Positions 2,721 through 53,976 of a stretch of DNA of 64,000 nucleotides are shown in pieces. A model generated the notes under the pieces. The model saw only the letters and a list, made by a program, of their open reading frames with translations. It was not told the origin of the DNA and searched no databases. The translations under genes and the position numbers were made by a program. Every line of letters begins with the position of its first letter. Within the stretch, counting starts at the first letter, position 1. Source of the stretch: Psammoneis japonica (taxonomy: Eukaryota); NCBI GenBank assembly GCA_008632985.1, contig QPGO01000146.1:1-64000 (forward strand). The letters run 5' to 3'.

Positions 2721-2833
2721 TGTGGGAAATTTGCGGCCCACATGTGGGTCGTAAAAAAATTGCGACAAGAATTTTGCAGCCCAGATGCGGGCTGCAAAAT
2801 TGCGTGTCAAGCGTCTGATGCGATTGGCGTTAA

Positions 2834-19252: not shown

Positions 19253-19553
19253 TTTGACAAGTTTCAGCCATTTTGTTCTCTTTGCACCCAACTTTGTTTC
19301 CAACTGTCAGTGTGGAAACAATGTGTGTAAAGCCACAACCGGTTGCACCAGAAATGGAAGCATCGTTTCATGCTCGGTGTCGCACTGCATCTGTTGGGTG
19401 ACACGTGCAGCTGTTGCTGGTCGTGCTGGCAACAAATGGAAGCGGTGGCACGAACTTGGTGTTGCGCAAACCTGTTGGGTGACAATTGCAGCAGCTGTTG
19501 CTGTGTGAGCCATTGTGCAACATGGTCACTGTGTTAATTAAAGAGGACTGAAT

Positions 19554-29450: not shown

Positions 29451-32026
29451 TCCTACTGTAGAATGTGCCTTCCCGGCAAAGTTGTCGGGGTCGGCATTCA
29501 TATCAAACTTTTGAAGCGCTTGAACGAGTTGACCGATTGTTTCGTTTGATTTCGTGGGCAACACGTGCTGAAGGATGTTCCTCCAAGTTTCGTTGAAGCT
29601 CTCGGAGGATTCCATAATGTCCGATAGACTCACCGTGAGGTGACGATCGGGGTATAGTTCTGCAATGGCGGAAGCCACCATCATTTGCTTGATAATCTCA
29701 AGACTTACTAAATGCATTTCCAGTTGCAGGCCCACTTCGGTCGGCAAATCACGGATCGCTTCTTGGATGATCATGTCTTTGCAGTTGTGCTTACCGCATA
29801 GTTCTTGCTTGAATTTCGGATGCTTGCCGACTTTTTCGTGCATCCAACCTTCCTTGCCCAGCTTTGTATACCGGTACGAGCTAAGGATCAAATCGATCGG
29901 ATTCCGAACGAAATGAACAACCAGATAGGTCTTCTCACACGACGCGTATTTGAGCTGCTTCTTGAGTGTCTTGATCTGACTCGTCATGCACTGCTGCAAT
30001 CCGTCCTTGCTTCCGCCTCCATTAGGCCAACTATCCCACCATTTTCCTAGGCAGTCAGACCAGGCGGCATCAATCATCCATTTTGGCCATTGGTTGTAGC
30101 TACGAATCTCCGGCTTCTCGTCCGTTCCGGAACAAGTCATTGCCTTGCCCTTTCCGTCACGGAACAAATTGTTCTCGTTCAGAAATTCCTCCGAGTAGGT
30201 AACCAATCCTTGTTTCTGGAGGAGCGAAGCGACTGACCTTGAAATATCCGTTCCAGTCTTGTGATGCGTCGCAAAGTATACAGTCTCCGGCGGTCCCTTC
30301 TTGGATTTACCCGCCTTAGTTTTCTGCTTTTGTTCCGCATTGGTATTTTCGTGGCTCTCTGAAGCTTTTTTGCGGGCTTCGAGGCGCTCTAGTGATTGGG
30401 TACGGCAGTGTTTGAACCGGAACTCTGGGAACGGTCTCTGTTCCGCATCGGGTCCGGGTGGTTCTCCAGCATCTTGTACAACTCTTGGTTGTAAGGATCA
30501 AAGGCTTCGGCAAGTTTAGCGTGTGAAATACACGAGGGTGTATAGTTGGTTCGATGCTTGGCTCTTTCGTTGAGTTTGACAATCGATTGAGGAGCAACGT
30601 CCTCGCCAACCGGCAAGTCGAGGAAGCGTTGAAGTCGATCCATTAGCGAATTAGGATCCTTAGACAATTCCTCGTATGAGAGAATCAATATTTGCTTTCG
30701 ATCGAAAAACGCCATCCATTCACTGATCCATTTCGAATACATGCCAAAAGATGAGGAAAGTTCCGGAAGCACCTCGCTCGTAACGTAGTTATCAAAGCTT
30801 AGAAGCTTTCCATTTTCGTCAAGGACCCGTTCGGTGTACGGTCGAGGATTCTCACTGGTGTAGTGCTCCTCTGCCATGTGATGGAAAAACGAAAACTCCC
30901 GATCAACAGGCTCACGCAAAATCATAACAATCTTTACGTCATCCTGCGCACCAGCTTGTTTGTAAATATTGGCAACGCGATCAGCATGCGGGAGATAATC
31001 CGGGGTGGCGTCCAACACGTGGGGGCTGTTTTCCCTACAGTGTTTGAAGTGGTTCTTGTAATGACCGAGTCCTTTGGAATACATTTCGTCCTCCAAATCA
31101 AAGAAATGAACTTCCTTGATGGGCTCGCCATTATCTGTAGATTTAGGTTTGCAGACGTTAGCATGGTGAAAGATCCAGCTGGCCACAGCGGTCGTTCCGG
31201 ATTTCTGAGCTCCAACCAACAAGACATTTGGAACTCCTTTGAAAGGAGCAATCGGTTTTGTTTCGTCTTTTTTGGTTCCATCAGAGATGTTCTTCTTGTA
31301 TGCCTTTTCCTTTTTTGAGTTTTTCACCTCTGGCTGCTTTGGATGCTCTTGTTCGATTGGTTTTTCTTCTACTGCTTTTTCTTCGACTGCCTTCTCTTCG
31401 ACTGGCTTGTTTACAGGTTCGTTCGGCATCGCTTGTGAGTTAGGCTTATTCTCTACAGGCTCAGCGACTGGTGTGTCAGGTTTCTCTACACGTTCAGACG
31501 GTTCTACTTGATCAGCAGGTTTCTTTTCGTCGCTGACAAGACCTTCTCCCTTTTTCGCAGTTTCGGGAGGCGTACGGTCTGCGTCTTTCGCGGCTTCCTC
31601 CGTTTTCCTGTTCGCGTGTTCTGGCACGTGTTTGATGTGCGGTGCAATGGCATGCTCTATATTATCAGCCATTAGAGTTTTCCGTAGATGATGTGTATAG
31701 TCAACGCTTGTATGGCCGTGAGACGACGCGGCCATGAGACTCATGGAGCGAATGACCAACATTGAAAAGCCATACAACCCAAAGCCCAACCAAAGCATGC
31801 GCATGCATCGCGATACACAAATCGACAGTGAGCTTCTTTTTCGCTTGGATGAAGATGTAATTGATCGATGCTTTAGGTCTGTTGAGACCTTGAGCTGAGT
31901 AGGAACGGCGCAGCAGTCGCTGGCATTTTCTTTTTGTTCTTTTGAGGGATGTGTACGATGCCTCATAATTTTGGGTTCGACTTCAGCTTCCTGCTTCTTT
32001 TCACTCCGTCTGCCGTCTCTTCTCAT
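29349..32026 (-). CDS. Type II membrane protein with two sulfotransferase domains, copy 1 (one apparent 1-bp frameshift at ~30457)
   Basis: TM segment; domain 1 GAQKSGTT, KEVHFFD, DATPDY, REPVDREFS; domain 2 THHKTGT, VVHFVRNPIDLILSSYRY; adding one base near 30457 joins the ORFs and matches the paralogue (GPDAEQRPFP). Confidence 0.85.
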
Positions 32027-32578: not shown

Positions 32579-34916
32579 CTACATGAGTGTTTTGATGATA
32601 GGGTCGTTCATCATTTGTTTCACTCCTTCTTCTGCCTCGAGGGACGCCTTGTGCTCGTCTGTTTCCTTTTTGCTTGTTTTTCCAGCGGTAGAGTGACCGT
32701 TTCCAACAAAGTTCTCAGGATCAGCGTTCATGTCAAACTTACAGAGCGACTTGACAATCTTTTGAATAAAATCAGGCTTTCTGTCTGGGAAAACTCCACT
32801 AATGATGTTGTACCAGGCTTTGTTGAAGCTCTTAGACGATTCCATGATATCCGACAGGCTCACGGTAATGTGATGTTCAGGATCACCCTTGGCCAAGACG
32901 GCAGCAACCATCATCTGCTTGACGGTCTCCATACTGGTGAGATGCATATCCAATTTCAGTCCGACTTCGGTTGGCAAGTCGCGAACTGCTTCTTGAATGG
33001 TCATGTCAAAGCAGCCCTCGTTGTCTCCGCAATACTCTCCAAGGAATCGTGGGTGACCCACAATATTCTCATGCATCCATTCCTCTTTTCCGAGCTTAGT
33101 GTATCGGTAGGAACTTAGCATCAAGTCGACTGGGTTGCGGACAAAGTGGACAACGAGATAGTTGTCTCCACAAGCAGCCTTTTTCAACTGGTCTTTGAGC
33201 GAATCCATTTCACCCATGATGCACTTCTCAAACAACTTATCGGTCGTGGTTTCGGCGGGCCATTTCTCCCACCACTTTCCGACGCATTTACCCCACAAGT
33301 TATCAATGATCCACTTTGGCCATTGGTTGTAGCTTCGGATTTCAGGAACGCCGCTGCCGCCCAAGCATTTCACGTCCTTTCCGTCTGCCGTTTTCATAAG
33401 ATTCTTTCATCCATCTCCTCGGTAGAGTATTTCGTGTAGCCCTTGAGCTTTAGCAGCGAAGCGACATTTCTTGAAATATCCGTTCCAGTCTTGTGGTGAG
33501 TGGCAAAGAAGACCGTCTTTGGTGCACGTCGTGTCGGTTTGCTCACTTTCTTTGGAGCCGGGACTTGCTTGGCGGGGGACTTTTTGACTTCCTTGGCGGC
33601 CTTGACAACCTTGTCCTTGGCCACATTTTCTTTCTTGTCCTGCTTTGCCGGTTTGCAGCCGGAAATCTGAAAGTGTGGGAATGGTCTCTGCTCAGCATCC
33701 GGTCCCTTGTTTGCATCAAGTCTCTTGTACAATTCATTGTTGGAATCTTCAAACAAATCGGCGAGCTTGTTTTGGGCAGCACACGACGGAATGTTCTTAT
33801 TCACAGACTTGACTTCGAGCGTAGTGCTGGGGATCTTTGAGTCCGATTCAAGGTTCAAAAATTTTTCAAGGCGTCCTCGTGCACTCTCCGTATCATTGGC
33901 AAGCTCATCATAGGACAAGACTAGTAGTTGCCTTCTGTCAAACTTGTCTGTCCATTCCTGGAAGAATTTGGCGTATCCGGCGTGAGACGACTTGAGCTTT
34001 GGAAGAACATTGTTATCCAAGTATCGCTCAAAGTTGATGAATTGTCCCTTTCTGTTTTTCACGGCACTGGTGTACTTTGGCGGATTCGGTTTCTTGGCCT
34101 GCGCAAGGACGTATTGGTACCAGCTAAACTCGCGATCCATTGGTTCACGAACAACGACAACCACCTTGAGTTTCTTAGAAGCGTCGTCTCCAACCTTGTC
34201 ATAAACTTCACGGACACGGCTAGCGTACTGAAAGTAGTCGGACGTGGCGTCGACAATGTGTGTCTTTTTCTCGTCTTGAGCGCAGTGTTAAAGTGTTTGG
34301 CGTACTCTTGTGGAGTGTTCTTGGACGCGTAGTCAGTCGCATCAAAGAAACGAGCCTCCTTGATGGGCTTGCCGCTCTGGATAGACTGTGGCTTACAGAC
34401 ATTGTCATGGTGGAATAGCCAGCTTGCGACTGCTGCAGTTCCTGAAAACTGAGCGCCAACCACAAGAACGTCTGGAATGCTGATGTCGGCGGATCCACTT
34501 GCTTTGGGAACCGCTACAGCTTGCTTTTCATCCTGGTCTTGCTTCTGCTCTTGCTCTTTCTGCTGTTCATCAACATTCACTTCTTCCCCACTGTCTGGGC
34601 TTGCAACCTGCTCTGATGAAGCCTTGTCTTCTTGTCTAGCAGATTCGCCAAGAACTCTGGCAGATGCGGCTGCTAGTTTCTCGCTCAAGGGACTCTTTCG
34701 CAACAAGTACGCACCCTGAAGACAAAGCCCGACAACAACCAGAGGCAAAAGCTTTCTCGAGATTCGACCTACCGTGGACTGTCGTTTACGGCCCTTGGAA
34801 GCATCACTAGCACCGGCAGGAATCTGCCTGGTTGGAAAACATTCTTGATCGTCAATGACCACAATGTGACCCGACTCGGACGCCCTTTTCGCGATTGGGG
34901 AAGAGCGTTGCCTCAT
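32579..34916 (-). CDS. Type II membrane protein with two sulfotransferase domains, copy 2 (apparent 1-bp frameshifts at ~34289 and ~33405)
   Basis: Collinear with copy 1: GAQFSGTA, KEARFFD, DATSDY, REPMDREFS, THHKTGT, VVHFVRNPVDLMLSSYRY. Confidence 0.85.
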
Positions 34917-35737
34917 CCTAATCAATCAGAAAATGCACAGTGAATTCTTCTCAGTTATAATGACAAGAACCTGGTGGGTGAGAGAGACAAAGTGATGTCA
35001 ATACAAACGTGTCAAAGCTTGCAGAGGACATTGTGTGCTCAAATTCATCACGACACTCAAAATGTGAGGCAGAAGGTCATCGTTGGTCATTCGATCGAAT
35101 ACCGGAACTCGGTTGCGAACACGTCAATTCTACACGCCTCGCAGTACAAACGCGAATAGCTGGAACCTTGTCCAATCAAATTGTGTGAATTTCAGAAAGC
35201 ATTAAGTAAAGTTTAACGCTCATTTACTCGTCATTCTGGAGATTTTCTGACTCTTGAATTCCTCATTCCAAGCTCCCTGGCGATTTTTTTTGGAATTTTG
35301 ATGGCCGAAAATCTTCGGAGTATCGTTTACTTACTTTTCAAATGTGAATATGTTCATTCGATCTAGCAGCTGCGTTGCCTCATTTTTTCTTCCAAAAAAT
35401 CGGAAGAAAACCATTCAACTTCTTCGTCCTCGAAGGTGCGTGCATTGGCACTTTGCGTCGACTTCAAGATCCCGAAGGGACTCGGAGTATCAAAAGCACG
35501 CAAGGAACGGGGAAACTGACGTGTGTGGAACTATGTTGAGATCTACATCCTGGTATAAATGCCATCAAATGGTATCCAATGAGAATGCAGCAAAGAGTGG
35601 AAATTGCCGCACGTTGGGGCAAGTACTGTACGGTAATAATTGCACTGATCTTTTAGTTCCTTGTTTACTGTGCCACATACTCAGCACAGTTCGCATTGAA
35701 ACAATAGCCCATTGCACGTATCATTGGCCATTCAACC

Positions 35738-36775
35738 ATGATGATGACTACTGCAATGAGCTCTGTTTGTATGAACGACAACAAGCACTACGAACATGTG
35801 CATGAAACTGTGAAGGCCATGAAACGACAAGAAGCAGAGTATCGACCATGTTGCGATTACCTCAAGGACAGCACTGCCGCAGATGAGTGCTCGAGGCAAC
35901 AAATTTGCGAGTGGATGTTTGTCGTGGTGGATCACTACGAGATATCGCGGGACGTGGCTGGCACTGGAATTTACTTGTTGGATTTGTATGCCTCCAAGAG
36001 CAGCAGCGCAATTCGCACGCCGGTGGAATATCAACTCGCTGCCATGGCTTGCCTGTTTCTGGCCTTCAAGGTTCATGGGCATGCGCATGAACGCGATGGC
36101 GTTGCTCTCAAGACGTTGGTGAAACTGAGTCGAGGGTTGTTTACAGTCGATCAGGTGGAAATGCAAGAGCTCCAAGTTCTCCTTACACTCTCCTGGAAAC
36201 TCCATCCACCGACACCCACGTGCTACTTGTCTCTGTATCTTCAGCTCTTGCCGTCCTCCATTTCGAGTTTGACGCGCTACAAGATTGCCGAAGTGGCTCG
36301 CTTCTTGTTGGAAATGTCACTCTGTGTCTACTCGGTGACATCAACGTGTCCTCCCAGTGTCATTGCGTATGCAGCACTCTTGATTGCCATGGATGATGTA
36401 AAGTACATTTCCATTGCACAAAGCCAAACCTTTTTTCAACGAATGTCCAGGTATGTGCATAGCATTGTGCTCTTGTCTCCTTGATGGTGTGATCTTTGTC
36501 ACGGTTCATCTTACACATTCCTTTTGTTTCTCTCTGTCATTCTACAGTGTCGCCGAGATTCATCACACGTCGACTCGGTTGCCAATGTTGCCTATTCTCT
36601 CCAACAACTCTTGTTGGAGCAAGATACAGACGTCAAGACTCTTTTGGAAAGTTTGGATCAAAAGTTTGATTCTCACCATCGTCGCCAAGATCGGCTTGCG
36701 GAAAAGGAGTTTTGCCGTCACGAAAACTCGTCGTCACCAAGAGACGTGATTGGAACCGAGTTTGTCAAGGATTAA
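35738..36775 (+). CDS. Cyclin (diatom-specific cyclin type); intron 36451-36547
   Basis: RQQICEWMFVVVDHY..YLLDLY..YQLAAMACLFLAFKVH..ELQVLLTLSWKLHPPTP; GTATGT..CTACAG intron; possible 1-bp frameshift early in exon 2. Confidence 0.88.
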
Positions 36776-37227
36776 TCAGACGAATCATCCACTCAAGTCG
36801 AAAAAAGCCGCGACGGGAGCTGCTTTGTATCCACGCACACGACGTTTTACATGATGTTTATAAGCACAGTTTGATAATATGCAATGCATTCGTTAACAGA
36901 ATTAGCACTAATTGATTGATTTGATAAAGCCCACACGGTGCTTTCATAGTCGACTGTTGATGCTTCGAATCATGGCCAATTGTCGAATCGTTTTGCTTGC
37001 GTTCGATTGAAGGAAGATGTGAGATCTCTAGCTACTAGTCTAGTTTGGATAGCTAGGTTGGATAAAGATCCGAATTGCACCGGCTACTCCTCGGCCTCTG
37101 GTACTATAATCGTCGCTGTTACAAAAGTTGTACTAGTACATAGGAATAGAGAAACAAAACCGAAGCATGCTTATGCTATTCTCTCTAGAGAGTTAGTTTT
37201 GAAATCTCTATATAGTTATATTGCAAA

Positions 37228-37752
37228 TTAATGAGACTTTGGTTTATCGACTAGACTCGGCCGCCGCATCCATCCAAAGAGAAGACTTGGGATTCCCTTG
37301 ATCATTGTGATGCAAACGCAGTAGAGAAATGAGCCCAAGTCGCTGTAAAGTGTCACGAGTCCCATTTCCCCACCCTTGAGTCCACTGTCGTAGTGGATGT
37401 TGTGCGTAACGCGGTCCTCTAGCTTTAGCAGTTTGGCAGACGGAAAGGTCCAAAACGACAAGATTCGTGTTCCTCGTTCACCAATGTGATCATTGCACTT
37501 GGAGCATTTGCCTCGCTTGGATCCTACCAAGCCCGTCATGGCTGTGGTACTGTCATACTCGACGGGACCCGCAATGGCAACCTGCCAAGCCCAAAACATG
37601 CATGACGAATTGTAACTTGTTTTGCAATAGCCGCGGCAGTGGGAACAGTGGCAATTGAAGAGAAAGAACGGATCTCGGCTGGTTTCGATAGAAACTGAGC
37701 CACAAGCACAAAAGTCGTGATGAACACTTCTTTTTTGAGATTTTTTCGTCAT
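37228..37752 (-). CDS. GFA/CENP-V (Mss4-like) zinc-binding protein
   Basis: CACG...CHCSHCR...CSKC motif pattern in a 174-aa ORF. Confidence 0.8.
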   Translation of the reverse strand: MTKKSQKRSVHHDFCACGSVSIETSRDPFFLFNCHCSHCRGYCKTSYNSSCMFWAWQVAIAGPVEYDSTTAMTGLVGSKRGKCSKCNDHIGERGTRILSFWTFPSAKLLKLEDRVTHNIHYDSGLKGGEMGLVTLYSDLGSFLYCVCITMIKGIPSLLFGWMRRPSLVDKPKSH

Positions 37753-38527
37753 CTGAATGCAGATGGGTCAACAAAGTTCTCTCAAGAGCTTGCGCATTTG
37801 CCGTTTCCGTTTACGCTCAAAGCTCTGCGTGCCGGAGGGAAGATTTATTGGGAAACCTCGGGAAGAACGGAAAATTTTGGCGGGAAATCCGAGACTCGTA
37901 GATGTTGGTACAGATTCTACGCAACGGTTACCAAGAATGCAGTGACGTAAGTACATGGTCGTCTCTTTCCGAGAAATCGTGCAACAGGAATGTCAAAATG
38001 AAAGCCCAGCCAGCTTCAAAGCACTGCATTTGTTGATAGAAATACCTCTTCACCACTGACCCAGCTAGAGTGCATGCTTCCCAACATTCTGCGAAGCTGA
38101 ATAGGATGTGGTTGACATTGGATCATCAGAGACAGCTCACACTTTCCTTGGAAAAACCAGGGGCGACACAGCCAGTCCATTGCAGTGTCCTTTTTCTGAC
38201 CAACTCCAGAACCAGCCACAACCAACAATGTTTTGCATCTCAACTGTCAATGAAGGAGATGGGGTTTCCGGCTTTAAAGTGTCTCTTTGGTCACCAGCAC
38301 CACAACTGTCTTGTCGCTAAATTGAAAATGTGGGCCAAGACTGCGTTGATGCTGAGTCACGATTGGTGTCACGACCCACGACTCATCCGGAACAGAAACG
38401 CGGATGAACATTGCCGCTGTCATCATTTGTGCTCTTCCTTGACCTTGCATTTACAGTTCAATGCACTCCCAAATGAGGTTTCCTTCATTCGACAGCGTGA
38501 AACAGGTGGTCCACGGCATTGCGCAAC

Positions 38528-39579
38528 ATGTCCGAAAACAAGAAGGGGCATCTTCCGCTCAAGGCAGCGACAGCACAGGTTGTCTCTGAAGCAAATGGCG
38601 CTGTCGTCGAGGACGTGGAAGAAGTCGCGGCAGTGGGTGTGGTTCAAATTGTTGCTCCGGCTGATCTGCCTGAAGGCTTTTGCTTTGAAGCTGAGGTGGA
38701 AGGGGCGCCCATCTACATCACTGTGGTGCGCACGGCGCACGAGTTTTGTTTTGTTTCACATGTCGTTGTCGCTTGTACGAGCAGTTGGACTGATGTGACT
38801 TTCACTTTTGTGCATGGCCAAAAGGTGGCATCGAGAAAGGAAAAAGATTTTTGGTGGCGCCTGCTGAAACAACCTTGAGCCATGAGAGAACCAACACCCC
38901 AGTTGGAAGGTGGAAGGATGATCTCTGTGACTGCTGTGTGCATGGCTGTTGCCACGCTCAGATGTGCCTTACAATCTGGTGCCCCTTGTGTGAGTTCTTC
39001 ATGCTGTCATAGAAGCAACTGTCGCCCTGAACAAAAGGAGGGGCTCACAATGGTGCGTTTTCATGCCGCTGCAGGCGCGATTGCACAAGTGATGCAAAGG
39101 CCAAACCTGAGCTGGTGTGGAGATCATGTGCGAGGGTCCGCAGGCACGAATGCCCACAGAGTCATGTTCCATGTTGCAGCTGCATGCATTGTAGCTCATG
39201 TCATGCTGCCTGTCATGATGATGGCCAGTCTCCAGCTGGCATGTCATGACAGTGGATGCCACAGGCATTCCAATTCGCGCGGGACTCAGACGGATTGTCA
39301 AGCCAGCGTCAATGGTCTGGATCAGCTTGGTGTGACACTTCACTCTTGTTCAGGCCTGCACCTCCTTGTGATTGCATCCAGGACACGGCATTGCTTTGCC
39401 AAAAATGCTCCATTCTAGCCTCCGGTTGTTGCGCGGATTGTGAAGATGCATGCTGCATCTTTTGGTGCGGGACGTGTGGCATCTGTCAAATGGCTCGTCA
39501 CACTGCGGACTACGATGTGCACCCCGCTGTGTGCTGCGAGCCAATGGGGATTCATCCCGATGCTCCGATCATTGTCTGA
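38528..39579 (+). pseudogene. PLAC8-family gene copy 1, intron-containing, TpA-hypermutated
   Basis: VAPADLPEGFCFEAEV, GRWKDDLCDCC..GCCH...IWCP, IAQVMQR, CEDACCIFWCGTCGICQMARHTADY. Confidence 0.8.
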
Positions 39580-39685
39580 GTAACAAGTTTTGTTTCAATT
39601 TCATGCCTCCCTTTGTTCTTAAAGTGTCGACCCTCGTGCATGTCATTTTAAGAGCTGCCTGGTCATGCTTCCATTTGTTGATCGC

Positions 39686-39961
39686 TGACAGGATTTGAAC
39701 AGGATTTGGGTGCGCGCGAAATGTCGCATGCTGTTTGGTTTGCCACGCACAGTTTTGTGTGCTTCAGTTCCGCGTGTTCGCGTGCAATGCAGTTTGCTTT
39801 CGAGCCACAAGGCTCACAAGAATGACAACAGCAGCCCGATCATGCCGACTCACACGTCTTTCGGCTCCTGCAATGGTCTCTGAGCGGAGACACATCTGCC
39901 ATTTAGACAGCAGCAAGGAGTCATTGTTTGAATTCTTGCCATTTGCCTTCAATTTCTGTCA
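39686..39961 (+). repeat. 5' LTR (276 bp)
   Basis: TGACAG...CTGTCA; direct repeat of 46483-46757. Confidence 0.95.
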
Positions 39962-40862
39962 GATCAACAGTCCTCGTCGTTGATTTACCGACGACGCTGC
40001 TTCAATTCTGCGTGGACCTCCATGTGCATTCTACATGCATCGGCAAGTCTGCGCACGTTCAATGCCAGGCATCGGCAGGAATTTAACGTCACCGTCAAGT
40101 CTCCTTGCCGCTGGACATCTGGATTGATTGCACCACCTTTGATCGCTGAAGACATGCATCAACGGTCACATCCAAGTCCATCCTTGACCCTCATCCCTTG
40201 ACATGCCCATTCATCGGTTAACGGTCAAGAACCCCACATGTTCAAGGATCTTCATCGCTGAAGACACACATGCACACACATCTTCATGGCCAAGAACTTT
40301 TGCCCACTCTTCGGACTGCAGTTTTGCTGCCACTCTACAAGCACACCGAGTCCATTGTGCCTGATCTACCCCGGACTGCTGGTGCTCCACAGTTCCACCA
40401 GGTCCACGAGGACGACTGTGAGAGCAAGCAGCCGTGGTTGCAGCCTGCGTTGGGGCGAGGGTGTTTTCCCGCGTTTGTTCGTTCGTCCACAGCGCCTGAC
40501 GCCCACGTCAACTGGCCAGCCTGATCGGGAAATCCAACCGACATAAAATGAGAACGGTTCGGGGGTCTTGTCCACCTCTGGTCAGCTCACCTGCAGGGGT
40601 TTACAACCCGCTGCTCCGCTCGCAAGCAACCCAAAGCACCGCTGGCTGTGGGTTCGGACGTGCCGGCACAACTCTGCGGACCGGACAGGAAGTTCAGCAC
40701 TTGACAACGAACGGGATGGCACAGCCCGGCGACTTCTGATTTTAAGGCAGTTCAAGATTTCAAGTCAAGTCCATTTCAAGTCAAGTCTGTTCTCACCCAA
40801 GTTTCAAGTCCACCTTCGCTTCCCAACAAGAATTGCTTGTCCGGACACCACTTTTGTCTGCC

Positions 40863-43800
40863 ATGGTTCTCACTCGTCAGCAACAAACCGATGGTTTCGA
40901 GCACGTTGTTGGAACCGTGCTTGCCCAAGGTGCTGGGAGCCCTCTTCATTTGGCTTTGGCCCAAGACGGCACGGACTCGCATCAAGAACTGTTCACGTTC
41001 ATGCCGCCCCAAATCGACTCGCTTGAGCACGACAACGGCACCAATGTGATCCCTTTGCCCCGCGGTTGTAAGAACATGTTAGCAGCTCTAGTCAGTCTGT
41101 GCATTGTCAAAGCACACGAAGGTCTTGACGTTGCCAATGACTCCTCGTTGTTCGCGCATGACGAGTTCCTTGCCTGCCGCCTCAGCCCCGACTGCATGTC
41201 TTCTGTGTCCGTCGGCAGCTCACCCCTCGCACCTCCGCATGTCACCAACCCGACCAAGGCATGCGACCCGGTACGAGACTTCAAGCGAGGCATCAAGCGT
41301 GACCCCACCGCTTTCACGGCTCTCAAATCCGACAAGCAGTGGCACACTTGGCACACCTCACTTGTGGCACAAGCCCGTGCCCAAGATGTCGAGTGCGTTC
41401 TAGACTCGTCGTACAAACCGACCAGCCCCGAAGACAAACTGCTCTTTGCTGAACAGCAAAAGTGCATGTTCGCCGTCTTCAAACGCGTCCTTCTCACCGA
41501 CAAGGGCAAGGCTCTCATTCACGAAAATGTGGGGTCTTCTGACGCCCAGACCGTCTGCCGCGCCTTGTCTGAGTGTGCGCTCGCCTCCACCCATGCATCT
41601 GTCGAGTCCTCCACCTTGCTCACGCACCTTGCCACCGCACGTCTTGGTGACGGCACTTGGAAAGGTCCAACCCACGGGTTCATCCTTCATTGGCAAGATC
41701 AGTTGCACAAGTGCGAGGCACTCATCCCGGCCAGTGACCACTTCTCTGAAGGACAGAAGCACGTCATGCTCGAGAATGCCGCACACCCTGTCGAGGAACT
41801 CCGTGCTGTCAAGAACCAAGCTGATCAGCATCGCACGCAGAGTGGCAAGAGCCTCACATGCGATCAATGCTGTGGCTTGCTCCTCTCCGCGGCGGCTCAA
41901 TGCGACAGTGCGTTTCAACCCAAGATGACACCTCGAGCTCCCCGACGTGCCATACATGCACACGACGTCTGCTCCGAGGAACCGTCCGACGATGTGTTCT
42001 ATGACATTGACAGCGACATTGACGTCCTTCAGGCCAATGCTGCCCACACCCGTGGTCCCAGCCTCACCGGTGACCAATGGAAACGTCTCCCTCCCGACCA
42101 CCAACGGATTTGGGATTCGTCGCCCCATTCCTCCAAGGCGATCATCCTTGAGCATTCTCGTCCGCCTCCCTGCAACCCGCGAGCCAGCAACTGCCATGAG
42201 TCCATTGCGGCCAACCTTCACGACCAACGCCTTGGGAGTGACGGTGATGTCAACTTGTCCAACACGACTCCTGCTGACTCTGGTGACCCCGCTCCAAATG
42301 TGGGTGCCACTTCGGACAATCCCATCCTGGCACACCTCACCAAGCGCAAGCCACTGCCACCCGGTGATCTGCAACGTCTGTTGTCTCCTAACCAAGCCCC
42401 CCAACGCCAGTCGACCGGGGCCATCCGCCGCTCCCTCTGCCCCGCCAGCTCCTGCCGATGACACAGAACTTAACGGCGGCACTTGCCGCCGCGTTGACAA
42501 CCACAATGTCATTTGCTCTGCCTCTGCTCATCGCTCCACACGCACTGGTGCTCCAGTTGATCATGGGGCCAACGGCGGCATTGCTGGCGACGACGTTCGT
42601 GTCATTGCACGCACCTCTTGCCAAGTCGACGTTCAGGGCATTGACGACCATCAATTGGTGGACATCCCCATTGTCACCGCTGGTGCCGTCATTGAGACCC
42701 AGCGTGGTCCCGTCATCGCCATCCTCCACCAGCATGCATGCACGGGCAAGGGCAAGACCATTCACTCCTGCGGCCAGCTCGAATGGCACAAACAGGATGT
42801 CAACGATCGCTCTGTCAAGGTGCCCAATGGCTTGCAACGCACTGCCACTCCTGATGGCTGTGTCACCCCCATTGACATCAAGGGCAGCCTGCCTTGTGTT
42901 GCCATGCGACCTTGCACTGATGCCAAATGGGACACCCTGCCCCATGTCATCCTCACCGGTGATGACACATGGGATCCTTCCGTCCTCGATCACTCTGTCA
43001 CTGACGACGACCAGTGGCACGACGCGATCTCTGACCTGCAGGACGATCCCACTGCCAACCTGTTTGACGAATGCGGCAACTGCCGTCATCGTGTCGTCGT
43101 CAACGAGACCATCATGTCCGCTTCCTTGTCTGCCGATCACACGTCCGCCCTTGATGATCACCTCATTCCGAACAACGACGTGTTCTGCGAGTGTCATCTG
43201 CATGCGATTGACCCCAAGGATGACGACGTTCCGCCCCCGGAGCGCACTGTGCAGCCCAAGGACCCCCCCTTCGAGTCTCTTCGGCCTTGCTTTGGCTTCC
43301 CACCTGCCGATGCGGTCCGTCGCACTTTTGACTGCACCACGCAGTGCGTCCGCATGCCCGCCGGTGCACACCTTAGGAAGGCCCACAAATCACCCAACCC
43401 CGCCCTTAATGTGCACCGCCGCAACGAGCCCATCGCCACTGACACCATTTGTGCCGACACCCCGGCCGTCGACTCTGGTTGCACCAGCGCCCAACTGTTT
43501 GTTGGCACCGAGTCTACCGTCACTGACGTCTGCGGCACCAAGACGGACAAAGAGTTTGTCAACACACTCGAGGATCAGATCCGTGAGTGTGGTGCCCCAT
43601 CCAAACTCATTAGCGACCGTGCTCAAGTTGAGATCAGCAACAAGGTGCTCGGGATTCTACGAGCCCTCTTCATCTCCAGCTGGCAAAGTGAGCCTCACCA
43701 GCAACACCAAAACTTTGCCGAGCGTCAACACCAGACCGTGAAGAGCATGGCGAACACTGTCATGGATCGTTTTGGTTCGCCTGCCCACACATGGCTGCTG

Positions 43801-46535
43801 GCGCTCATGTGCGTGTGCTTCATGCTCAACCACACAGCGTCCCCACATCTCCACTGGTGCACGCCCCTTGAGACTCTCACTGGCTCCACCCCGGACATCA
43901 GCCCATTGCTTCGCTTTCACTGGTGGGAACCCGTGCACTTCCACCTCGATGACTCCGATTGGCCGTCCGAATCCCATGAGTTGCGTGGACGCTTTGTTGG
44001 CATTGCTGAGCACGTCGGCCACCAGATGACCTTCAAGATTCTCCCTGACGAAACTCAGAAGATCCTCTGCTGGTCCAACGTACGTTCCGCTGCCACCGAT
44101 CCTGCCGTTCGAAACCTGCGTCTTGATCCTCCTGATGGGGAGCCACCTGAACCCATCATCAAATCTCGCCATGACGACAACCCCGTCGATTCTCCTGATG
44201 GGGAGATCAGGACACCCAAGATGCCAGTTTTCGATCCGCAAGACATCATCGGACGCACCTTCCTCATGCAGCCACAAGAGGATGGACAACGCCACAGAGC
44301 TCGCATCGTCAAGGCCGTCGAAGACCACGAATGGAAAGTGAACGGCAATCCCGAGCTCACTAAGTTCATCTGCTCTGTCAACAACGACGAACACACGAGG
44401 AAGTCCTTGCCTGCAATGACATCATGAATCACATTGAGCAAGAAGACGAAGACACTGCTGTTTGGAAATTTCGATGCATCGTGTCACACGAAGGACCTCT
44501 GAAGCCTCATGACCCAACCTGGAAAGGCTCAAGCTACAACGTCATGCTTGAATGGGAAAGTGGGGAGATCACGTCCGAGCCTCTTGCCATCATCGCCAAG
44601 GATGACCCCGTCACCTGCGCCATCTGTGCACGAGAGAATGGACTTCTCGACACTGATGGCTGGAAGCGGTTCCGCACCATCGCGAGGCGCCAGAAGAAGC
44701 TATTTCGCATGGCCAACCAAGCCAAGCTTCGCTCCTTCCACACTGCACCTCGCTGCAAGTGTGGGTGCGAAGTTCCCCGGAACTGCAAACACGCCATGTC
44801 ACTGGACGAACGCAATGGCAACCGCAAATGGGGAGACGCAACTAATCTCGAGATGGACCAACTCGGTGAATGCGAAGTCTTCCATGACTGCGGGCCCTTC
44901 GAGTCTTCCACTCCTCCTGCGGGACACAAGAAGATCCGAGTGCACCTGGTGTGTGACGTGAAACACGATGGTCGCCACAAGGCACAACTCGTAGCCGATG
45001 GGCACCTCACGGACACACCCATCGACAGTGTCCACTCCGGAGCAGTCTCCCTCCGTGGCCTTCGGCTGATGATTTTCCTGGCCGAACTCAACGAGTTGGA
45101 GACATGGGCCACCGACATTGGAAATGCCCACCTTGAAGCCACCACCAAGGAGAAGCTCTACATTGTAGCTGGACCCAAATTTGGCAAACTCGAAGGACAC
45201 ATCCTTGTCATCCACAAGGCCCTGCATGGACTGCACAGCTCCGGTCTCCGCTGGCACGAGCGCTTCGCCGACTGCCTGCGAGCTGAAGGCTTCTTCCCCT
45301 GCCGCGCCGAACCCGACATTTGGATGCGCAGGAACGGCAACCACTGTGAATGCATTGCCGTTTGTGTGGATGACCTCGCCATTGCCATGAAGGACCCTCA
45401 ATCTTTCGTCGATGCTCTCACGGAAAAGTGCAAGTTCAAGCTCAAGGGTGCGGGACCCATTGAGTTCCATCTGGGTTGCGACTTTTCCCGGGATCCCGAC
45501 GGCACCTTGTGCCTGTCTCCGTGCAAGTGCATCGAGCGCATGGTCAACAGCTGCACCCGACTGTTTGGGGAGAAACCCATCACCAATGCCCTGTCACCTC
45601 TGGAGAAGGGTGACCACCCCAAACTGGACACTTCCGAACTGCTGGAGCCCGATGGCATTCACAAGTTCCAGTCTCTTGTTGGTTTGCTCCAATGGGCAGC
45701 GTCCCTTGGTCGAATTGACATTGCCACGGCCGTCATGTCACTCTCTAGCTTCCGAGCTGCGCCCCGTCAAGGCCACTTGGATCGTGCCAAACGCGTCTGT
45801 GGGTGCCTCTCCAAGATGCAACACGGCGCTCTCCGCGTTCGCACGGAAGAGCCCGACTGTTCGGATCTCCCTGCTCCGGCCTGTGAATGGATGCATTCCG
45901 TGTACGGCGAAGCAGAAGAGATGATCCCGAAGGACGCTCCACCGCCCCTTGGCAAGTTCGTCACCACCACCCACTGTGTCGATGCAAACTTGCACCATTG
46001 CATGCTCACCAGACGCTCTGTCATGGGGATGCTCCACTTCCTCAACAAATTCCCGGCTGATTGGTTCTCTAAGAAGCAAGCCACCGAGGAGACTGCAACC
46101 TGCGGGTCTGAATTTGTTGCTGCAAGGACTTGTGTCGAGCAGATTGTCGACCTGCGCATCACCCTGCGCCACCTTGGCATCCCGATCCGTAACGTCAGTT
46201 ACATGTTCGGTGACAACAAGTCGGTTGTAGACAGTGCCACCATCCCGCACTCCAAGTTACACAAGCAACACACCGCACTGTCGTTCCACCGTGTGCGTGA
46301 GGCAATTGCCTCTGGCTGCCTTGAGTTCCACTTCATCGAAGGCTCCCGCAACCCTGCTGACATTCTCAGCAAGCATTGGGGTTGCTCCCAAATCTGGGAC
46401 CTTCTCCATCCCCTCATGTTCTGGAACTTCATTCCATCCGAAGTCGAATCTGTTTCTGTGGCTCCTCAAGCAAACTGGGGAGTGACAGGATTTGAACAGG
46501 ATTTGGGTGCGCGCGAAATGTCGCACGCTGTTTAG
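40863..46535 (+). pseudogene. Copia gag-pol, hypermutated, frameshifts at ~42400 and ~44395
   Basis: gag DFKRGIKRD; protease VDHGANGG; integrase IATDT..LISDRAQVE..QNFAER; RT DIGNAHL, KALHGL, CVDDL; RNase H CVDANL, FGDNKSVV, NPADILSK. Confidence 0.95.
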
Positions 46536-46757
46536 TTCACCACGCACAGTTTTGTGTGCTTTAGTTCCACACGTTCGCGCACAATGTAGTTTGCTTTCGA
46601 GCCACAAGGCTCACAAGAATGACAACAGCAGCCCGATTGTGCCGACTTGCACGTCTTTCGGCTCCTGTGACGGTCTCTGAGCGGAGACTCATCTGCTGTT
46701 TAGACAGCAGCAAGGAGTCATTGTTGAGTTCTTGCCATTTGCCTTCAATTTCTGTCA
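46483..46757 (+). repeat. 3' LTR (275 bp)
   Basis: Direct repeat of the 5' LTR, preceded by the PPT and followed by the TSD. Confidence 0.95.
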
Positions 46758-46972
46758 ATCGCCATTGTCATTCAGCACATTCTCAATTTTTCTAAATGAA
46801 ACGATGCATTGTGACCACATGTGGCACCAACGTCAACCTGTTTTTGAGTTGAGCACTGCTTGTGCGTGGGAATGTTCTTTGGCAGTTTTTCGCATGTTGG
46901 CCAAAAAGGTCTCTTTCTTTGCCATTGAAACTCGGAAAAATGCAAAGCAAAATGGCAAGAAGTGCCACAGCA

Positions 46973-47172
46973 AATGAAGAAAGCTGCAATTTGATGATGC
47001 AACGGCTCTGCACCACAGTTTTAAAACAGTCAAGGGAATTTAAGGTGCAAGAATTGATGTGCCGCAGCAAATGAAGAAGGTGGCACATGAAGAAAGCTGC
47101 AATTTGATGATGCAATGGCTCTGCACCACAGTTTTAAAATGGTCAAGGGAATTTAAGGTGCAAGAATTGATG
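46973..47172. repeat. ~87-bp direct repeat pair
   Basis: 46973-47059 resembles 47086-47172; differences are CG/TG and CA/TG. Confidence 0.85.
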
Positions 47173-48626
47173 GTGGGAGAGTCACACGGAGAGCAGTGGG
47201 GTGGGAGCATGCCACAGAGTGAGGGTGCGACAGTGCTGACAGATGGGTTGGAGGAAAAAGAAGGAAGAGAATGACAGCAAAAAAAGTCTTGACATGAGGT
47301 GAGGTGAGCAGTGAGGGCAAGGCCAAAGTCAAGACTGAGGAGATGGGCAGCCCAAGATTGGGGAGTGGATGAGTGATGGGAGAAGCCAAGGTGTAGAAGG
47401 AGAGTTGTTTCCAGGCAATGTTGGTGTGGGTGAAGATGTTGATGGGAGAAAGCAAGGAGGTTTGGAAAGCTGGGAAGGGATCTTCTGAACTGAAGAACTC
47501 ATCAGGAACAATCCAGTGTGGCTTGGGAGGAGGGGCGAAATGGAGTCAAAGGAGGATGTGAGCAAGCTGAAGAAGAAGGTGTGGAAGTGGTGGCCAAGGC
47601 CACCCAGATGATCAGTGGCAAAAAAAAATGGGAGCAGACAGGCTTGGTTGATCAAGTTGATGACAGAAGCACCAGTGGCAGAGGAGCAGTGGTGTCCTGA
47701 GGTTCAGCAAGAAGGCCTTGAGCAGCAGGCAAGTCAGGTGCAGGGTGGGAAGCAGCTGGAGGAGCAGCAACATCAATGAGAAGAAAGTGTCATGCAGAGG
47801 AGGCACCGGGAGGAGCAGAGCTGGGGAAGAGCTGGGTGCCAGTGCCAGCAGGGCATTTGGGAGGATGCACAGAGAGCAGGCCATCTGGCTTCTTGAGAAA
47901 GACATGACAGCAGGAGCAGCAAGAGCCGGCTGGGGATCCAGCACAGGATGTTGATGATGGAGCAGATGGTGTCTCAGCCATTGGTCAAAAAATGCAGTGA
48001 ACAGTGCCAGTGCACAGTGCAGCAGGGCCCTGACCAGCTGCCAGAGGTTGTCTTGTGCTTGCTCCATTGATGAAATCTTTCTTTAGAAATCAAACCCAGC
48101 CAGCTTTGAAGCACTGTGCATTTGTTGATGCTGAGGACACCTTTGCACCACTGACCTGGCCAGAGTGCATGCTTCCTCACATTCTGCAAAGTTTGCTTCA
48201 CAGTGAGATCCAGTCTACATCAAATCATCAGAGAGACCACTCACCATTTTCTTGGAAAAACTCAAAAACACAGCCAGTCCATTGTGGTTTCTCTTTTTTT
48301 TGCCAACTCCAGAGCTGATCAATGTCAACAACATTGAGTGTTTCAGCCATCAATGGAGAAGAGGGGGGCTCCAGCTTTGGTGTGTGTCTTTGTTTGCCAC
48401 AACACAGCTGTTGTGTTGTGCTGGTGCTAAAAGCAAGCAGGCCAAGGCTGAGACCATTTGTGCTGAGTTGACAGCCACAACTGTGCATGTGATCAAGTCA
48501 AGACTTGCAGCTCATCTGCGCCACCAAACATGAGGATCATTGGACTTTGCCTTCACAGCTTCATTGACTCCAAACAAGGCTTGCTTCATTTGACAGCATG
48601 AAAAAGGCACAGCGCAGCATGGTGCA

Positions 48627-49570
48627 ATGCCCAAAACAAGAAGGGGCATCTTCTTCCACTTGAGGTGGTGACAGCACAGGTTGTCTCTGAAAGAAATGAT
48701 GCTGCTGTCAAAGCTGCAGAGAAGAAGTTGTGGTGACAGGTGTTGGCCTAAATTGCTGCTCCAGCTGATCCACCTGAAAGTGCTCACTTTGAAGCTGAGG
48801 TGGCAGCACACACCTGTCTGCTGTCTGCACTGCTGTGACACACACAGCACATGAGCTTTGTTCTGTGGCACATTTTGTTTGCTTGTGCAAACAGCTGAAC
48901 TGATGCAACTTCCTTTTTTTGCAAAGCCATGAGGTGGTGTTGAGAAAGAAAAAAGGCTTTTGGTGGTGCCCGCTGAAGAAACCTTGAGCCTTGAGAGACC
49001 TGCCCCAATGCCCCAGTTGGAAGGTGGAAGGATGATCTCTGTGACTGCCACACATCTGGCAGTTGCCATGCTCAGATGTGCCTTGCAATCTGGCTCCTAA
49101 CATGCAAATTCTTTGTGCTGTTGCACAGAAGCAGCTGTCACCCTGAACAAAAGAAGCACCTCACACTGGACAAGTGATGTGCAAAGGTTGAACCTGAGCT
49201 GGTGTGGAAATCATGCTCAAGGATCCACATGCCCCAATGTGCACAGAATCACATTCAGCATTGCAGCTGCATGTGTTGTTGCTTGTGTTGCACTTTCTCT
49301 TGTCCACCAGGTCAGCTCAATGTGCCACTTTGCTCTTGTGCAGGCCTGCACCTCCTTGTGATTGCATCTGGGATTGTCACTGCATCTGCCAAAAATGTGC
49401 CATTCCAGCCTCAGGTTGTTGTTTGGGTTGTGAAGATGTGTGCAGCATCTTTTGGCACATGACATTTGGCATCAGTGAAAATGGCCTGTCACATTGCAGA
49501 ATGCAGCATGTGCTGTGCCATGTGCTGTGAGCCAATGGGGATCCATCCTGATGCTCCCTTCACTGTCTGA
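48627..49570 (+). pseudogene. PLAC8-family gene copy 2, more degraded
   Basis: Collinear with 38528-39579, including ~500 bp upstream (38020-38520 resembles 48110-48620); has lost both TpA and CpG. Confidence 0.8.
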
Positions 49571-51366
49571 GAAGCCAGCTTGACTCAATTTGCAGGCCCC
49601 CTTCCCCGGGCTTTGAGTTTTTTGACCCTGGTGAAATTCACCTCAAAAGCCACCTGGCTGCCCATTCATTTTGTCAACTGCAATTGCACTCAGTGCACCT
49701 TCAATTTGCCCACATGCACCAATGAGTTGCAACAACATCCAGTGAAGTTGAGTGCCAAGTGGGCAAATTCTCTTGCAGTTTTTGTGTGTTGGCCCAGAGG
49801 TGCCTTTCTTCCCTGTTGAAATTTGACCAAATGCAAAGCAGAATGGAGTGTAATGCTGCAGCAGATGCAAACAAAAAAAGCTGAAATTTGATGATGTGAT
49901 GGCATTCCACACATTTGCAGCTCATGGACAGAAGACACTTGCTCTGCAGCACAATGACATGTGCTGTGTTTTTTTGTTTTGCAGGGATCTTTCAACCAAG
50001 CCACTCAAAAACAAATGAGGGAAATTGCTGTTGATGCGAATGGCATCTTTGTCAATCCCATTGATGAGACAGGTCACAGACTCTGCCTCTGGGAGTTCAT
50101 GATGGACCAAGGTCCTCACAGGTTCTTTCCCCACAGTTTGTCTCATTTTCACAGCTGGCATCCTTCTCACAACCTGCCATGCCTTGTGTGCATCCTGTGA
50201 CAATTGCCTCCAGAGAGAAATGGGTTTCTGTCATTTGAGCAGTCAAGATGATGGACAAGGTTGAGTGTGCTGCCCAGCAGAGATGGCAGCAGTGCACATT
50301 GTCCCTGCAATGGCACCACAAAGGCCAGCCACAGAAAGGAGGGCAAGGGCATGGCTCAAGCCATCATGCCAGCCAGCCTTCCTGAGGGCTTTCTTTTGTT
50401 GAAATGAAAGTTGAGAAAAAGGCCATGTCTGCCACAGCAGTGGGCACTGTGACCACATTGCTTGACCAATGATGCTGTGGCCAGCAGCACTTCATTCATC
50501 TCACCACCCTCTCTCATCATGAAGAAATCCCACTGAACCATCTTCAATGTTTTTTCACAAGTGCAGCCAACGGGCAGTGTTGAGGAATGAAAAAAATTGT
50601 GGCATCACCTGAAAAGACTGGCAGCACCCAGGAGATGCTGTGCACTTGCCAGACAATGGAAGGATTCATGATCTGTGAGAGCTGCTTTGACTGCCCTCAG
50701 AAAGATCAGCAGCACCTTGTGCTTTGACACACCTGCTGTGCAAGTCATGGTTGCTGTCATCACCAACTTTGTCTCCAACTCATGAGTGCTTTGTCTTGCT
50801 GTTTTTTGTGCAATGCTCTGCACAAGTGATGCAAAGAATGAATCAGGTTTGGGGCACACAAGTCCTTCACAGTGGTTTGTGGGAGCTCCAATGCTTGTGA
50901 AACAATGCTCATGCTTGCAACCATCTTTGTCTTCATTGACAATGTGCTCCTCCAGCTCTGGGTGGGAAAAGCAAAGGAAGGCTCAAGCAAAAGACTTTGA
51001 TGGAGCTGAAAGTGTGTCAAGGTGAGGTTTTTGTCAGAAAAGACAAAGTGCAGCCCAACGGAGCTGGTGGCAGCACATGGCGGCTCTTCATCAGACAGCA
51101 ATGCCATGGAGGCCATCCACAGAAGGGAGGACAACAAGGGCATGATTGAGCTTGCTGCACCAGCTGACCATCCTCCAAGGGCTTTTCTTTTGATGCAGAA
51201 GTTGAGAAGCAGGCTGTCTCTGTCACTGTGGTGGGTGCTGGTGATGTTGCATGAAACAGCAACAATGTGGCTGGTGATGTGCAGTGTTTTGTCTTGTTGT
51301 CCTCTTGTTGCCAAGAGATCCTGCCAAACAGTCTTCAATGTTTTTTACATGTGCAGCCAAAGCAAG

Positions 51367-52139
51367 GGTGGCGCTGAGAAAGGAAAAAGATTCATGGTGT
51401 CTCCTGAAGAGATCACCAGCAGCCATGGGCATTGAAGGATGACATCTGCAAAAGCTGCTCTGATTGCTCTTGCAACAGTTGGTGGTGCCTCACGCTTTGG
51501 CACCCAGCTTTCAAGTTGCGGTTGTTTGTCACACCACCAAATCTGTCTCTGATTGACAAACAGTTGATCTCATCACATTTTGTGCAACACAAGGCATGAT
51601 TGCACAAATGATGCAACAAAATGAATCTAAATTGGTTCATGGATCTTTCACCACAGTCCAAAACAACATTCATGCTTGCAACCCTCTGTGTCTTCATTGA
51701 CAGTGTGCTGTCTCTTGCATGTTGGGGGCTTGTGGTTGGGGGGCTTGGGTCTGAGACACTGCAGGACTGTCAAGCTGCCATTTCCACCACAACAACAGCC
51801 AGTTCAATTCATTCTCTGCATTTTTGCTGGCGTGCCTGCACCTGCTGACCATTGCTGTCAAGACCCATCATTGCCTTCTTCAATTCATTCTCTGCATTTT
51901 TGCTGGCGCGCCTGCACCTGCTGGCCATTGCTGTCAAGACCCATCATTGCCTTCATCAGAAGCATGCCATTCAGGTGGAACACTGCAATGAGTGTTGTGA
52001 AGAAGTTTGCTGCTCCTTTTGATGCCTGAGGTGCGGCATTTGCCAAACGGCTTGTCACACAGCCGACTGCGCCCCTCGCTCTGCCAAGTGCTGGGAGCCA
52101 ACAACGGGGAGCGACCCCAGTGCTCCTGTCATTGTCTGA
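51367..52139 (+). pseudogene. PLAC8-family gene copy 3, 5'-truncated
   Basis: GGAEKGKRFMVSPEE start and ...GCTCCTGTCATTGTCTGA end match copies 1 and 2; internal ~68-bp tandem duplication at ~51803-51955. Confidence 0.65.
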
Positions 52140-52663
52140 GAAGCAAGTTGTTTCAAATTGGACCCTTCATCAGACAGACCATCCAAGAAAATTGGTTTCC
52201 TGTCTGATGCTGTGATGGTGTTCAATCTTTTCTAATTGGCTCTTGGCTCAAGCATGCCACGACACAGCAAACCTGGCTCGGATCTTCTGGTGAAATCAAG
52301 CAGAGTGGAGCTGCGCGTGGTGCTGTGGCATGCCCACTGGCATGAAATGATGCAAGAGAAGAAAGCCAAGGTAGTGTGCTATGTTAGCTGACAAAGAGAA
52401 ATCAGATGTCAGATTACTCTCGACACTCCATCCCTCTCCACCGGCATTGTAAGAACAAAGCCATGCGATGGAAGTTGCTCGCACAGTACACCCGCCTATC
52501 ATGCACCCTACCATTTTGATTTTGATCCTGCACACTGACTCATTCATGCCAGAAGCAATGTTGCAACTTGCGACGCGACCATGATGTGGCATCATAAAAC
52601 AGACGACACATCTACTGTAGCTCCGTCATCTATCTACTAAGCGCAAAACGAACAAGTTCCACC

Positions 52664-53707: not shown

Positions 53708-53976
53708 CAGGCTTTAATTTTGAAACTAGTACTATAGTCGGCTCTGAACAAAACAGTGTAGGTGAGAGAAGCACCTCCACAGCTGCTTGCACAGCTGACC
53801 ATATTCCAGAACGCACTTGCGACAGTTATTACGAACGGAATAGACCCGTGAATCGAGCGGAACGCTTCGCATCAAAGCAGCATAGTATACTGTGCAATCA
53901 ATATAAACAAAAATATTACGTATCTTTCCACATGTCCTACCGCCACTACGAAAAACCAAAAGTTGACTTACGCTTT

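Follow-up and report, generated by a model that had tools for sequence, protein, structure and literature searches.

The locus studied here raises the question of whether the two long terminal repeats (LTRs) of one retrotransposon were mutated independently after the element had entered the chromosome, and which kind of process mutated them. The window, that is, the whole stretch of DNA analysed, is 64,000 nucleotides long and was taken from Psammoneis japonica (assembly GCA_008632985.1, contig QPGO01000146.1, positions 1 to 64,000).

A Ty1/copia LTR retrotransposon is located at 39686-46757 on the plus strand of the window. Local alignment places its 5′ LTR (276 nt, repeat family D1) at 39686-39961 and its 3′ LTR (275 nt) at 46483-46757, both on the plus strand and with TG...CA ends, and the internal region of the element lies between them at 39962-46482 (plus strand). 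A purine-rich tract, AAACTGGGGAG, abuts the 3′ LTR at 46472-46482 on the plus strand and is a candidate polypurine tract by its position alone. The pentamer ATCGC was read on both sides of the element, at 39681-39685 and at 46758-46762, as a target-site duplication. The element lies in an older repeat, whose copy A ends on the left of the insertion (38712-39678, plus strand) and resumes at 46764-47020. Copy B, a paralogue of copy A with 74–78% identity to it (48824-49674 and 49683-49916), is uninterrupted and contains the counterpart of the pentamer only once, near 49670. Because ATCGC is found on both flanks and this paralogous empty site carries one counterpart, the LTR pair represents one insertion event. 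No second copy of the element or of its LTR was detected within the 64-kb window (blastn, word size 9). Two LTR patterns that were made degenerate at pyrimidine-purine steps gave 0 matches in the metagenome, genome and viral contig collections, and a peptide translated from the 5′ LTR open frame, used as a probe for false gene predictions on further LTR copies, gave no match either.

The coding part of the element is damaged. An open frame of 723 codons at 44364-46532 (plus strand) contains an RVT_2 domain (Pfam, E=1.6e-21, 77.5 bits versus a cut-off of 31.6) and extends 50 nt inside the 3′ LTR. Upstream of the reverse transcriptase, a pol segment in element frame 3 (42778-44394, plus strand) was identified by tblastn, in which the N-terminal 400–550 residues of 17 long relatives matched this segment. 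No Pfam integrase family was found at E≤0.1 in the element, and the upstream pol segment was without any Pfam match. The two pol segments are separated by a frameshift at 44385-44397 (plus strand), where the frame changes from 3 to 2 relative to all 17 relatives. For comparison with other copies of the family, contigs from four runs (X1–X4) of one sample in one study were used. This study is possibly the source of the assembly, and therefore the contigs give no independent confirmation of the window sequence. The other family copies in the contigs of all four runs are shorter by 2 nt at 44392-44394, so the window copy is the one that carries the frameshift. Many family contigs also part from the window just past the 5′ LTR, at 39972-39974. 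Each of the four runs has loose contig ends at 39972, X1 having 11 of them. Because the contig matches end there, the window copy appears to be structurally unlike most of the family around the place where a primer-binding site is expected.

The two LTRs were compared site by site. They are 91.7% identical and differ by 22 substitutions and one 1-nt indel (alignment position 242). Twenty-one of the substitutions are transitions, and the remaining one is an A/T transversion at alignment position 207, which agrees with the about 22 substitutions and single non-transition counted by hand in the initial annotation. At alignment positions 52, 80 and 105, the 3′ LTR reads TA and the 5′ LTR reads TG or CA. 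Six doublets are reciprocal, reading TG in one copy where the other has CA (56-57, 98-99, 156-157, 166-167, 186-187 and 215-216). At five further sites, CG is kept in one LTR and is TG or CA in the other, the 3′ LTR keeping CG at 44, 90 and 189 and the 5′ LTR at 87 and 89. The earlier list of sites was thus right in its three TA sites, always with TA in the 3′ LTR, and in its six reciprocal dinucleotides, but it overlooked the five CG-keeping sites. Since CG is kept in one copy at these five sites, ordinary CpG decay would be a second contributor to the divergence.

Altogether, 20 of the 22 substitutions are changes among TA, CG, TG and CA steps, the exceptions being positions 207 and 247. Pyrimidine-purine steps occupy 146 of the 276 LTR positions. 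When the substitutions were placed at random 100,000 times, at least 20 of 22 fell in such steps with a frequency of 6e-5 (binomial 1.7e-4), and at least six adjacent substitution pairs arose with a frequency of 0.0036.

The differences could in principle be inherited family variation, if the two LTRs had come from different elements through recombination or gene conversion. Copies of the family are very numerous and diverse (14,194 contig pieces from run X1 matched at 80% likeness), and the window is unlike nearly all other copies at several sites, as such an origin would allow. However, recombination would give unlike flanks, and here the same 5-bp duplication is present on both sides together with an empty site. 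Family variation would also not be limited to TA, CG, TG and CA with six reciprocal doublets, unless the same processes had made that variation. We therefore give this explanation hardly any credence. One insertion with an intact target duplication, followed by independent divergence of its two LTRs after integration, was the central claim of the initial annotation, and it stands.

The dinucleotide composition differs between the element and its surroundings. In the 5′ LTR, 1 TA and 15 CG are left, and the observed/expected ratio of TA is 0.06. The 3′ LTR has 4 TA and 16 CG left, with a TA ratio of 0.24. The CG ratios of the two LTRs are 0.87 and 0.94. In the element interior (500-bp windows, 40001-46500), the TA ratio is 0.0–0.26 and the CG ratio is 0.62–1.09. 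The G+C content of the interior is 53–61%, versus 43–54% in the flanking genic 500-bp windows, and this raised value fits a change from A:T to G:C. A TA-depleted domain extends around the element from 38001 to 52500 (TA observed/expected 0.0–0.27 in 500-bp windows), and in the right part of this domain, 47001-52000, CG is also nearly gone (0.0–0.17). In contrast, genic 500-bp windows on either side (34001-38000 and 52501-56000) have TA ratios of 0.32–0.96. Within this one window, TA depletion is limited to the mobile-DNA domain and the flanking genes are spared. The genes in the window are eukaryotic, long and mostly uninterrupted, and include cyclin, sulfotransferase, short-chain dehydrogenase, RCC1 and ankyrin proteins. 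One host protein falls, among other eukaryote clusters, in a protein-atlas cluster in which Bacillariophyta is the most frequent phylum, a weak pointer to a diatom. Converted blocks alternate with genic stretches of ordinary values, so that normal genes and fully converted old repeats form a mosaic in the window.

Several other features of the window were recorded. The blocks at 2001-4000, 12001-20000, 24001-26000 and 47001-52000 have CG ratios of 0.03–0.61 and TA ratios of 0.02–0.18, and their TG/CA ratios rise up to 1.6–2.0. Short tandem duplications occur in converted DNA, at 46970-47059/47083-47172 and at 13380-13957. The first pair is 96% identical, and its 4 substitutions include one CG/TG difference and one reciprocal CA/TG difference. 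Two sulfotransferase-like genes (30025-31233 and 33258-34477), which are 3.2 kb apart and share segments of 72–84% identity, have ordinary TA and CG. As these copies keep both dinucleotides, duplication alone at 72–84% identity does not seem to draw the process. Between 40211 and 46610, 36 overlapping open frames of at least 80 codons are present on both strands. Loss of TA removes TAA and TAG stops, so these long open frames are probably spurious and would mislead gene finders.

The direction of change was examined with relatives of the element's pol, which polarise pol and not the LTRs. At E≤1e-10, 1362 relatives were found; the best 120 of the 1362 are 53–67% identical to the element, and all 120 contain PF07727. 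Columns were regarded as conserved when at least 80% of these 120 relatives agreed, and for the upstream segment the 54 relatives with a length of 900 aa or more were used. In 24 conserved Tyr columns, the element has Cys in 15, His in 5, Trp in 1, Phe in 2 and Tyr in only 1 (TAC at 45903). Hence 21 of the 24 Tyr codons have become TGY, CAY or TGG. None of the three conserved Tyr residues is retained in the upstream pol segment (42778-44394), and the YVDD motif of the reverse transcriptase is CVDD, its Tyr codon now being TGT at 45363. Conserved Arg residues were mostly preserved, 38 of 43 being retained (35 as CGN) and five lost to Gln, His, Cys or Trp. The share of sites struck in pol is about 0.88 for TA to TG/CA and about 0.12 for CG to TG/CA. 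On these codon counts, the change of TpA to TpG or CpA is judged to be near saturation in the element and that of CpG to TpG or CpA to be slower, and the direction in pol is read as TA loss rather than TA gain.

The timing of this damage can be narrowed. The conserved Tyr residues are gone and a frameshift is present near 44392, so the pol copy cannot be autonomous, and because a damaged copy is non-autonomous, most of the pol changes are best placed after the insertion. Part of the Tyr losses could nevertheless be older, if the copy that was mobilised in trans had already been damaged. One of the pol relatives, the copia reverse transcriptase P0056, is 62% identical to the element and carries the source label of a Bacteroidota metagenome-assembled genome; it is probably eukaryotic DNA that was binned into a bacterial genome.

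Variation of the sites within the family was examined in its other copies. Among 540 differences between the window and the contigs, 40 were classified, two of them in an LTR, and the absence of a position from these 40 was not counted as evidence. Among the 40 classified differences, the window reads TG or CA at 13 where 8–70% of the depth of the other copies is TA, and reads TA at 2 where other copies have TG. At 9 of the 40, the window has TG or CA and 92–100% of the depth of the other copies is CG. At 6 of the 40 (40057, 41118, 41154, 41487, 41651 and 43098), the window has CG where 88–100% of the depth is TG or CA. Four of the 40 belong to two doublets in which CA stands in the window, against T and then G in nearly all other copies, and the remaining 6 are changes of other kinds. 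Within this subset, TA sites appear to vary copy by copy at intermediate frequencies, as expected for separate hits in each copy. The CG differences are nearer to fixation, and their losses seem to be inherited along element subfamilies. Since the window keeps CG at six classified positions where the others have TG or CA, the CpG pattern would be in part inherited subfamily structure.

For the LTRs, the contigs give a few direct readings. Position 39783 is C in 92% of the depth (38 contigs) and position 39786 is G in 99.6% (48 contigs). The end of one family contig reads CGCGCG and then ATGTAG over alignment positions 96-107, and another contig reads GCGCG over 86-91. Because family contigs read CG at these places, the reciprocal site 98-99 and the CG-keeping sites at 86-91 were, by this comparison, formerly CG; for 98-99, derivation from CG is thus shown at the level of the family sequence. 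At alignment position 105, at least one other family copy has TA.

The ancestry of the six reciprocal sites bears directly on the process. An LTR pair alone polarises nothing, and the initial annotation had correctly warned that reciprocal sites by themselves cannot separate TA from CG ancestry. It had also considered that the family consensus might have CG at these sites and that the TA states might be derived. CG was found at one of the six (98-99). The second half fails, as one other copy has TA at position 105 and 21 of the 24 Tyr codons have gone from TAY to TGY, CAY or TGG. The counts of intact and struck steps in the LTRs give a further estimate. Thirteen CpGs are intact in both copies and five carry single hits, and a homogeneous CpG process would therefore predict about 0.2 reciprocal sites. 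For TA, one step is intact in both copies and three carry single hits, and a TA process at the interior rate would predict about 4–6 reciprocal sites. In a Poisson rate model that assumes independent and homogeneous sites, although the CpG hits are clustered, 1.1–1.9 of the six are expected to be CG-derived, given at least one such site, and 2.8 under the most CG-friendly prior. The clustering is seen at 86-99, where 5 of 12 chances were hit versus 2 of 26 elsewhere (Fisher P 0.02), and because of it more of the reciprocal sites could be CpG-derived. A 1:1 binomial model for reciprocal sites made from CpG only was dropped as too simple, the CpG hits being clustered. From the rate models, about 4–5 of the six reciprocal sites were probably TA formerly.

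These counts also weigh on the possibility that only methyl-CpG decay acted, with all six reciprocal sites being former CG and the TA states of the 3′ LTR being secondary or RIP-like gains. Some of the data are what CpG decay would produce, namely the five differences with CG in one LTR, the CG of other copies at 98-99, the local density of the CpG hits and the near absence of CG from old blocks of the window. However, such decay predicts about 0.2 reciprocal sites and six are seen. It also leaves unexplained the deficit of TA (0.06 and 0.24 in the LTRs, 0.0–0.26 in the interior) and the fact that 21 of 24 Tyr codons but only 5 of 43 Arg codons were lost, and it does not account for TA at position 105 in one other copy. 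A history of CpG decay only is highly improbable on this evidence.

Editing before integration was considered as another source of the pattern. In this explanation, an adenosine or cytidine deaminase would edit the RNA or the single-stranded cDNA, and the differences between the LTRs would reflect the order of strand synthesis. In the retroviral replication scheme, a single LTR could in principle be marked if the minus strand were edited once the plus-strand strong-stop DNA had been made, or if that strong-stop DNA were edited. RNA editing, however, cannot produce any difference between the LTRs: every LTR part has a single RNA segment as its template, and editing of that RNA would leave the two LTRs identical. 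In the first 100 nt, the polarity expected for cDNA editing fits 8 of 10 derived states (TG in the 5′ LTR at 44, 52, 56, 90 and 98; CA in the 3′ LTR at 56, 87, 89 and 98), and the TA-derived changes in pol lean to TG (19 versus 6). In vertebrates, LTR elements are known to undergo APOBEC editing, according to the accessible part of one report (PMC4866542).

Over the whole LTR, the derived states are 6 TG and 6 CA in the 5′ LTR and 4 CA and 4 TG in the 3′ LTR. Editing of cDNA predicts TG-type states solely in the 5′ LTR and CA-type states solely in the 3′ LTR, and 10 of the 20 derived states contradict this, among them all four reciprocal sites at 156-216. Moreover, pol contains both product types, in patches, and the non-coding old repeats near the element are depleted equally on both strands (TG ~ CA), and both observations speak against such editing. 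The initial annotation had argued that the pattern speaks against RNA editing, and the differing LTRs bear this out, together with the 10 of 20 derived states that break the polarity of cDNA editing. Editing before integration is in our view very unlikely.

The reading that we prefer, with a probability of about 0.8, is that a Ty1/copia element was inserted into an older repeat and that two transition processes then acted after integration, both at self-complementary pyrimidine-purine steps. The retrotransposon entered the older repeat and made the 5-bp duplication. A faster process would change TpA to TpG or CpA (A:T to G:C) and strip most of the TA from the element. It would hit each LTR separately. 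Where one copy was struck, a TA/TG or TA/CA difference would result, and where both copies were struck on opposite strands, the difference would be a reciprocal TG/CA. A slower process would change CpG to TpG or CpA, the change that 5-methylcytosine deamination is expected to cause in silenced transposons. This slower process would yield the five single differences and at least one of the reciprocal sites, and would be concentrated in the CpG cluster. As to the chemistry of the TA part, enzymatic adenine deamination in DNA is our best guess, by analogy with what has been proposed for Bigelowiella natans.

The neighbours and strands of the changes were also examined. Relative to genic DNA, whose TA contexts are shaped by codon usage, the surviving TA steps contain TAT at 0.16 times in the element and 0.37 times in the old blocks, and TAA at 1.6 and 2.6 times, respectively. 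The deficit of TAT and the excess of TAA suggest, as a lead only, that the TA process has a preference for the 3′ neighbour. TTAA is the commonest TA survivor in the old blocks (17 of 63). In pol, the two product types (TG and CA) form runs, with 12 runs among 36 polarised events (permutation P 0.023), a modest hint of patches that are each a few hundred bases long and specific to one strand. Seven consecutive CA-type changes occur at 44985-45234 (three Tyr to His, Val to Ala, Arg to Gln, Glu to Lys and Arg to His). Four events of this 250-bp run are TA-derived and three are CG-derived, and all would be deaminations of the minus strand. Such a run raises the thought that one patch-wise, strand-specific deaminating machinery attacks a given strand of the integrated transposon DNA both at the adenine of TpA and at the cytosine of CpG, which we regard as unlikely. 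The product bias in pol is opposite in the two classes, with 19 TG versus 6 CA for TA-derived changes and 3 TG versus 8 CA for CG-derived changes, a contrast that is biased in part by which changes affect the encoded residue. The rates of the two classes are also about 7-fold apart, and a strand bias common to the TA and CG changes was tried and found unsupported. If one machinery were nevertheless at work, the TA and CG losses would belong to a single genome-defence system that runs counter to RIP, in a second lineage of algae.

The two processes would distort the apparent age of the element. The K2P distance between the LTRs is 0.087 overall versus 0.007 outside the targeted steps, the latter value being based on 2 events (exact interval for the background 0.09–2.6%). 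The overestimation of age by LTR dating, which had been foreseen in the initial annotation, amounts to about 10–12-fold with the background taken from these 2 events.

The closest known system is found in the chlorarachniophyte B. natans. Hypermutation restricted to TpA has been described there in the integrated DNA of giant viruses and virophages (Mettrop et al., bioRxiv 10.64898/2026.01.13.699255). According to the accessible text of this preprint, mutation-accumulation data show that a TpA-only process can act on integrated chromosomal DNA, with de novo changes that exceed the background rate by orders of magnitude. The authors propose an ADAT2-like enzyme that deaminates adenine, and they find that coding sequences depleted of TA are enriched in reverse-transcriptase and DDE transposase domains. 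As far as that text goes, the two systems share the change of TpA to TpG or CpA according to strand, the targeting of integrated foreign DNA, the sparing of ordinary genes and the formation of TA-poor, TG/CA-rich domains. They differ in the organism and in the target, which is an LTR retrotransposon here. The loss of TA is deeper here, with observed/expected values down to 0.0–0.1 versus a Rho of 0.45 in the B. natans viral region given in the preprint. A CpG component is present here and none is reported in the accessible text, and we read this component as a separate, co-occurring process. The evidence is comparative here, whereas it comes from mutation-accumulation lines in the preprint. 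In the openly accessible literature that was covered, no description of a TpA-directed process in diatoms was found, and the B. natans preprint, as far as its text was accessible, is the sole precedent that we found.

The slower component resembles methyl-CpG decay, with CG changed to TG or CA while the sister LTR keeps CG at five sites and with old repeat blocks that are nearly CG-free. In contrast, the loss of TA and the pattern of Tyr to Cys or His are beyond the reach of such decay, and methylation is presumed here. CpG methylation of LTR retrotransposons is reported for the diatom Phaeodactylum tricornutum in the accessible part of one study (PMC2806351). The APOBEC3 editing of retroelement cDNA (PMC4866542, accessible part) is alike in being a deaminase-type hypermutation that disables LTR elements. 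Unlike APOBEC3, which converts C to U on one cDNA strand before integration, the process here affected both strands in each LTR and changed mainly A:T to G:C.

The changes seen here were also compared with fungal RIP. They are likewise post-integration, transition-only and targeted to dinucleotides, and they likewise inactivate repeated copies of mobile DNA and inflate their divergence. However, the direction is opposite, as TpA is destroyed here and the G+C content is raised (53–61% in the element). Fungal RIP, in Neurospora and others, makes TpA from CpA and TpG and lowers the G+C content. A RIP-like hypermutation at CpG is reportedly present in Microbotryum (PMC5381629).

The changes described here have consequences for how such elements are found and dated. 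Transposon annotation suffers, since RVT_2 alone is recognised and long spurious frames appear, and protein searches meet pseudo-proteins that lack Tyr. The LTR pairs serve as an internal clock, from which the rate and the sequence preference of the process may be measured without experiments. If TpA-directed hypermutation from A:T to G:C acts on the resident transposons of this organism, it would not be peculiar to one chlorarachniophyte, and it would point to a wider genome-defence-like mechanism in microbial eukaryotes that is opposite in direction to fungal RIP.
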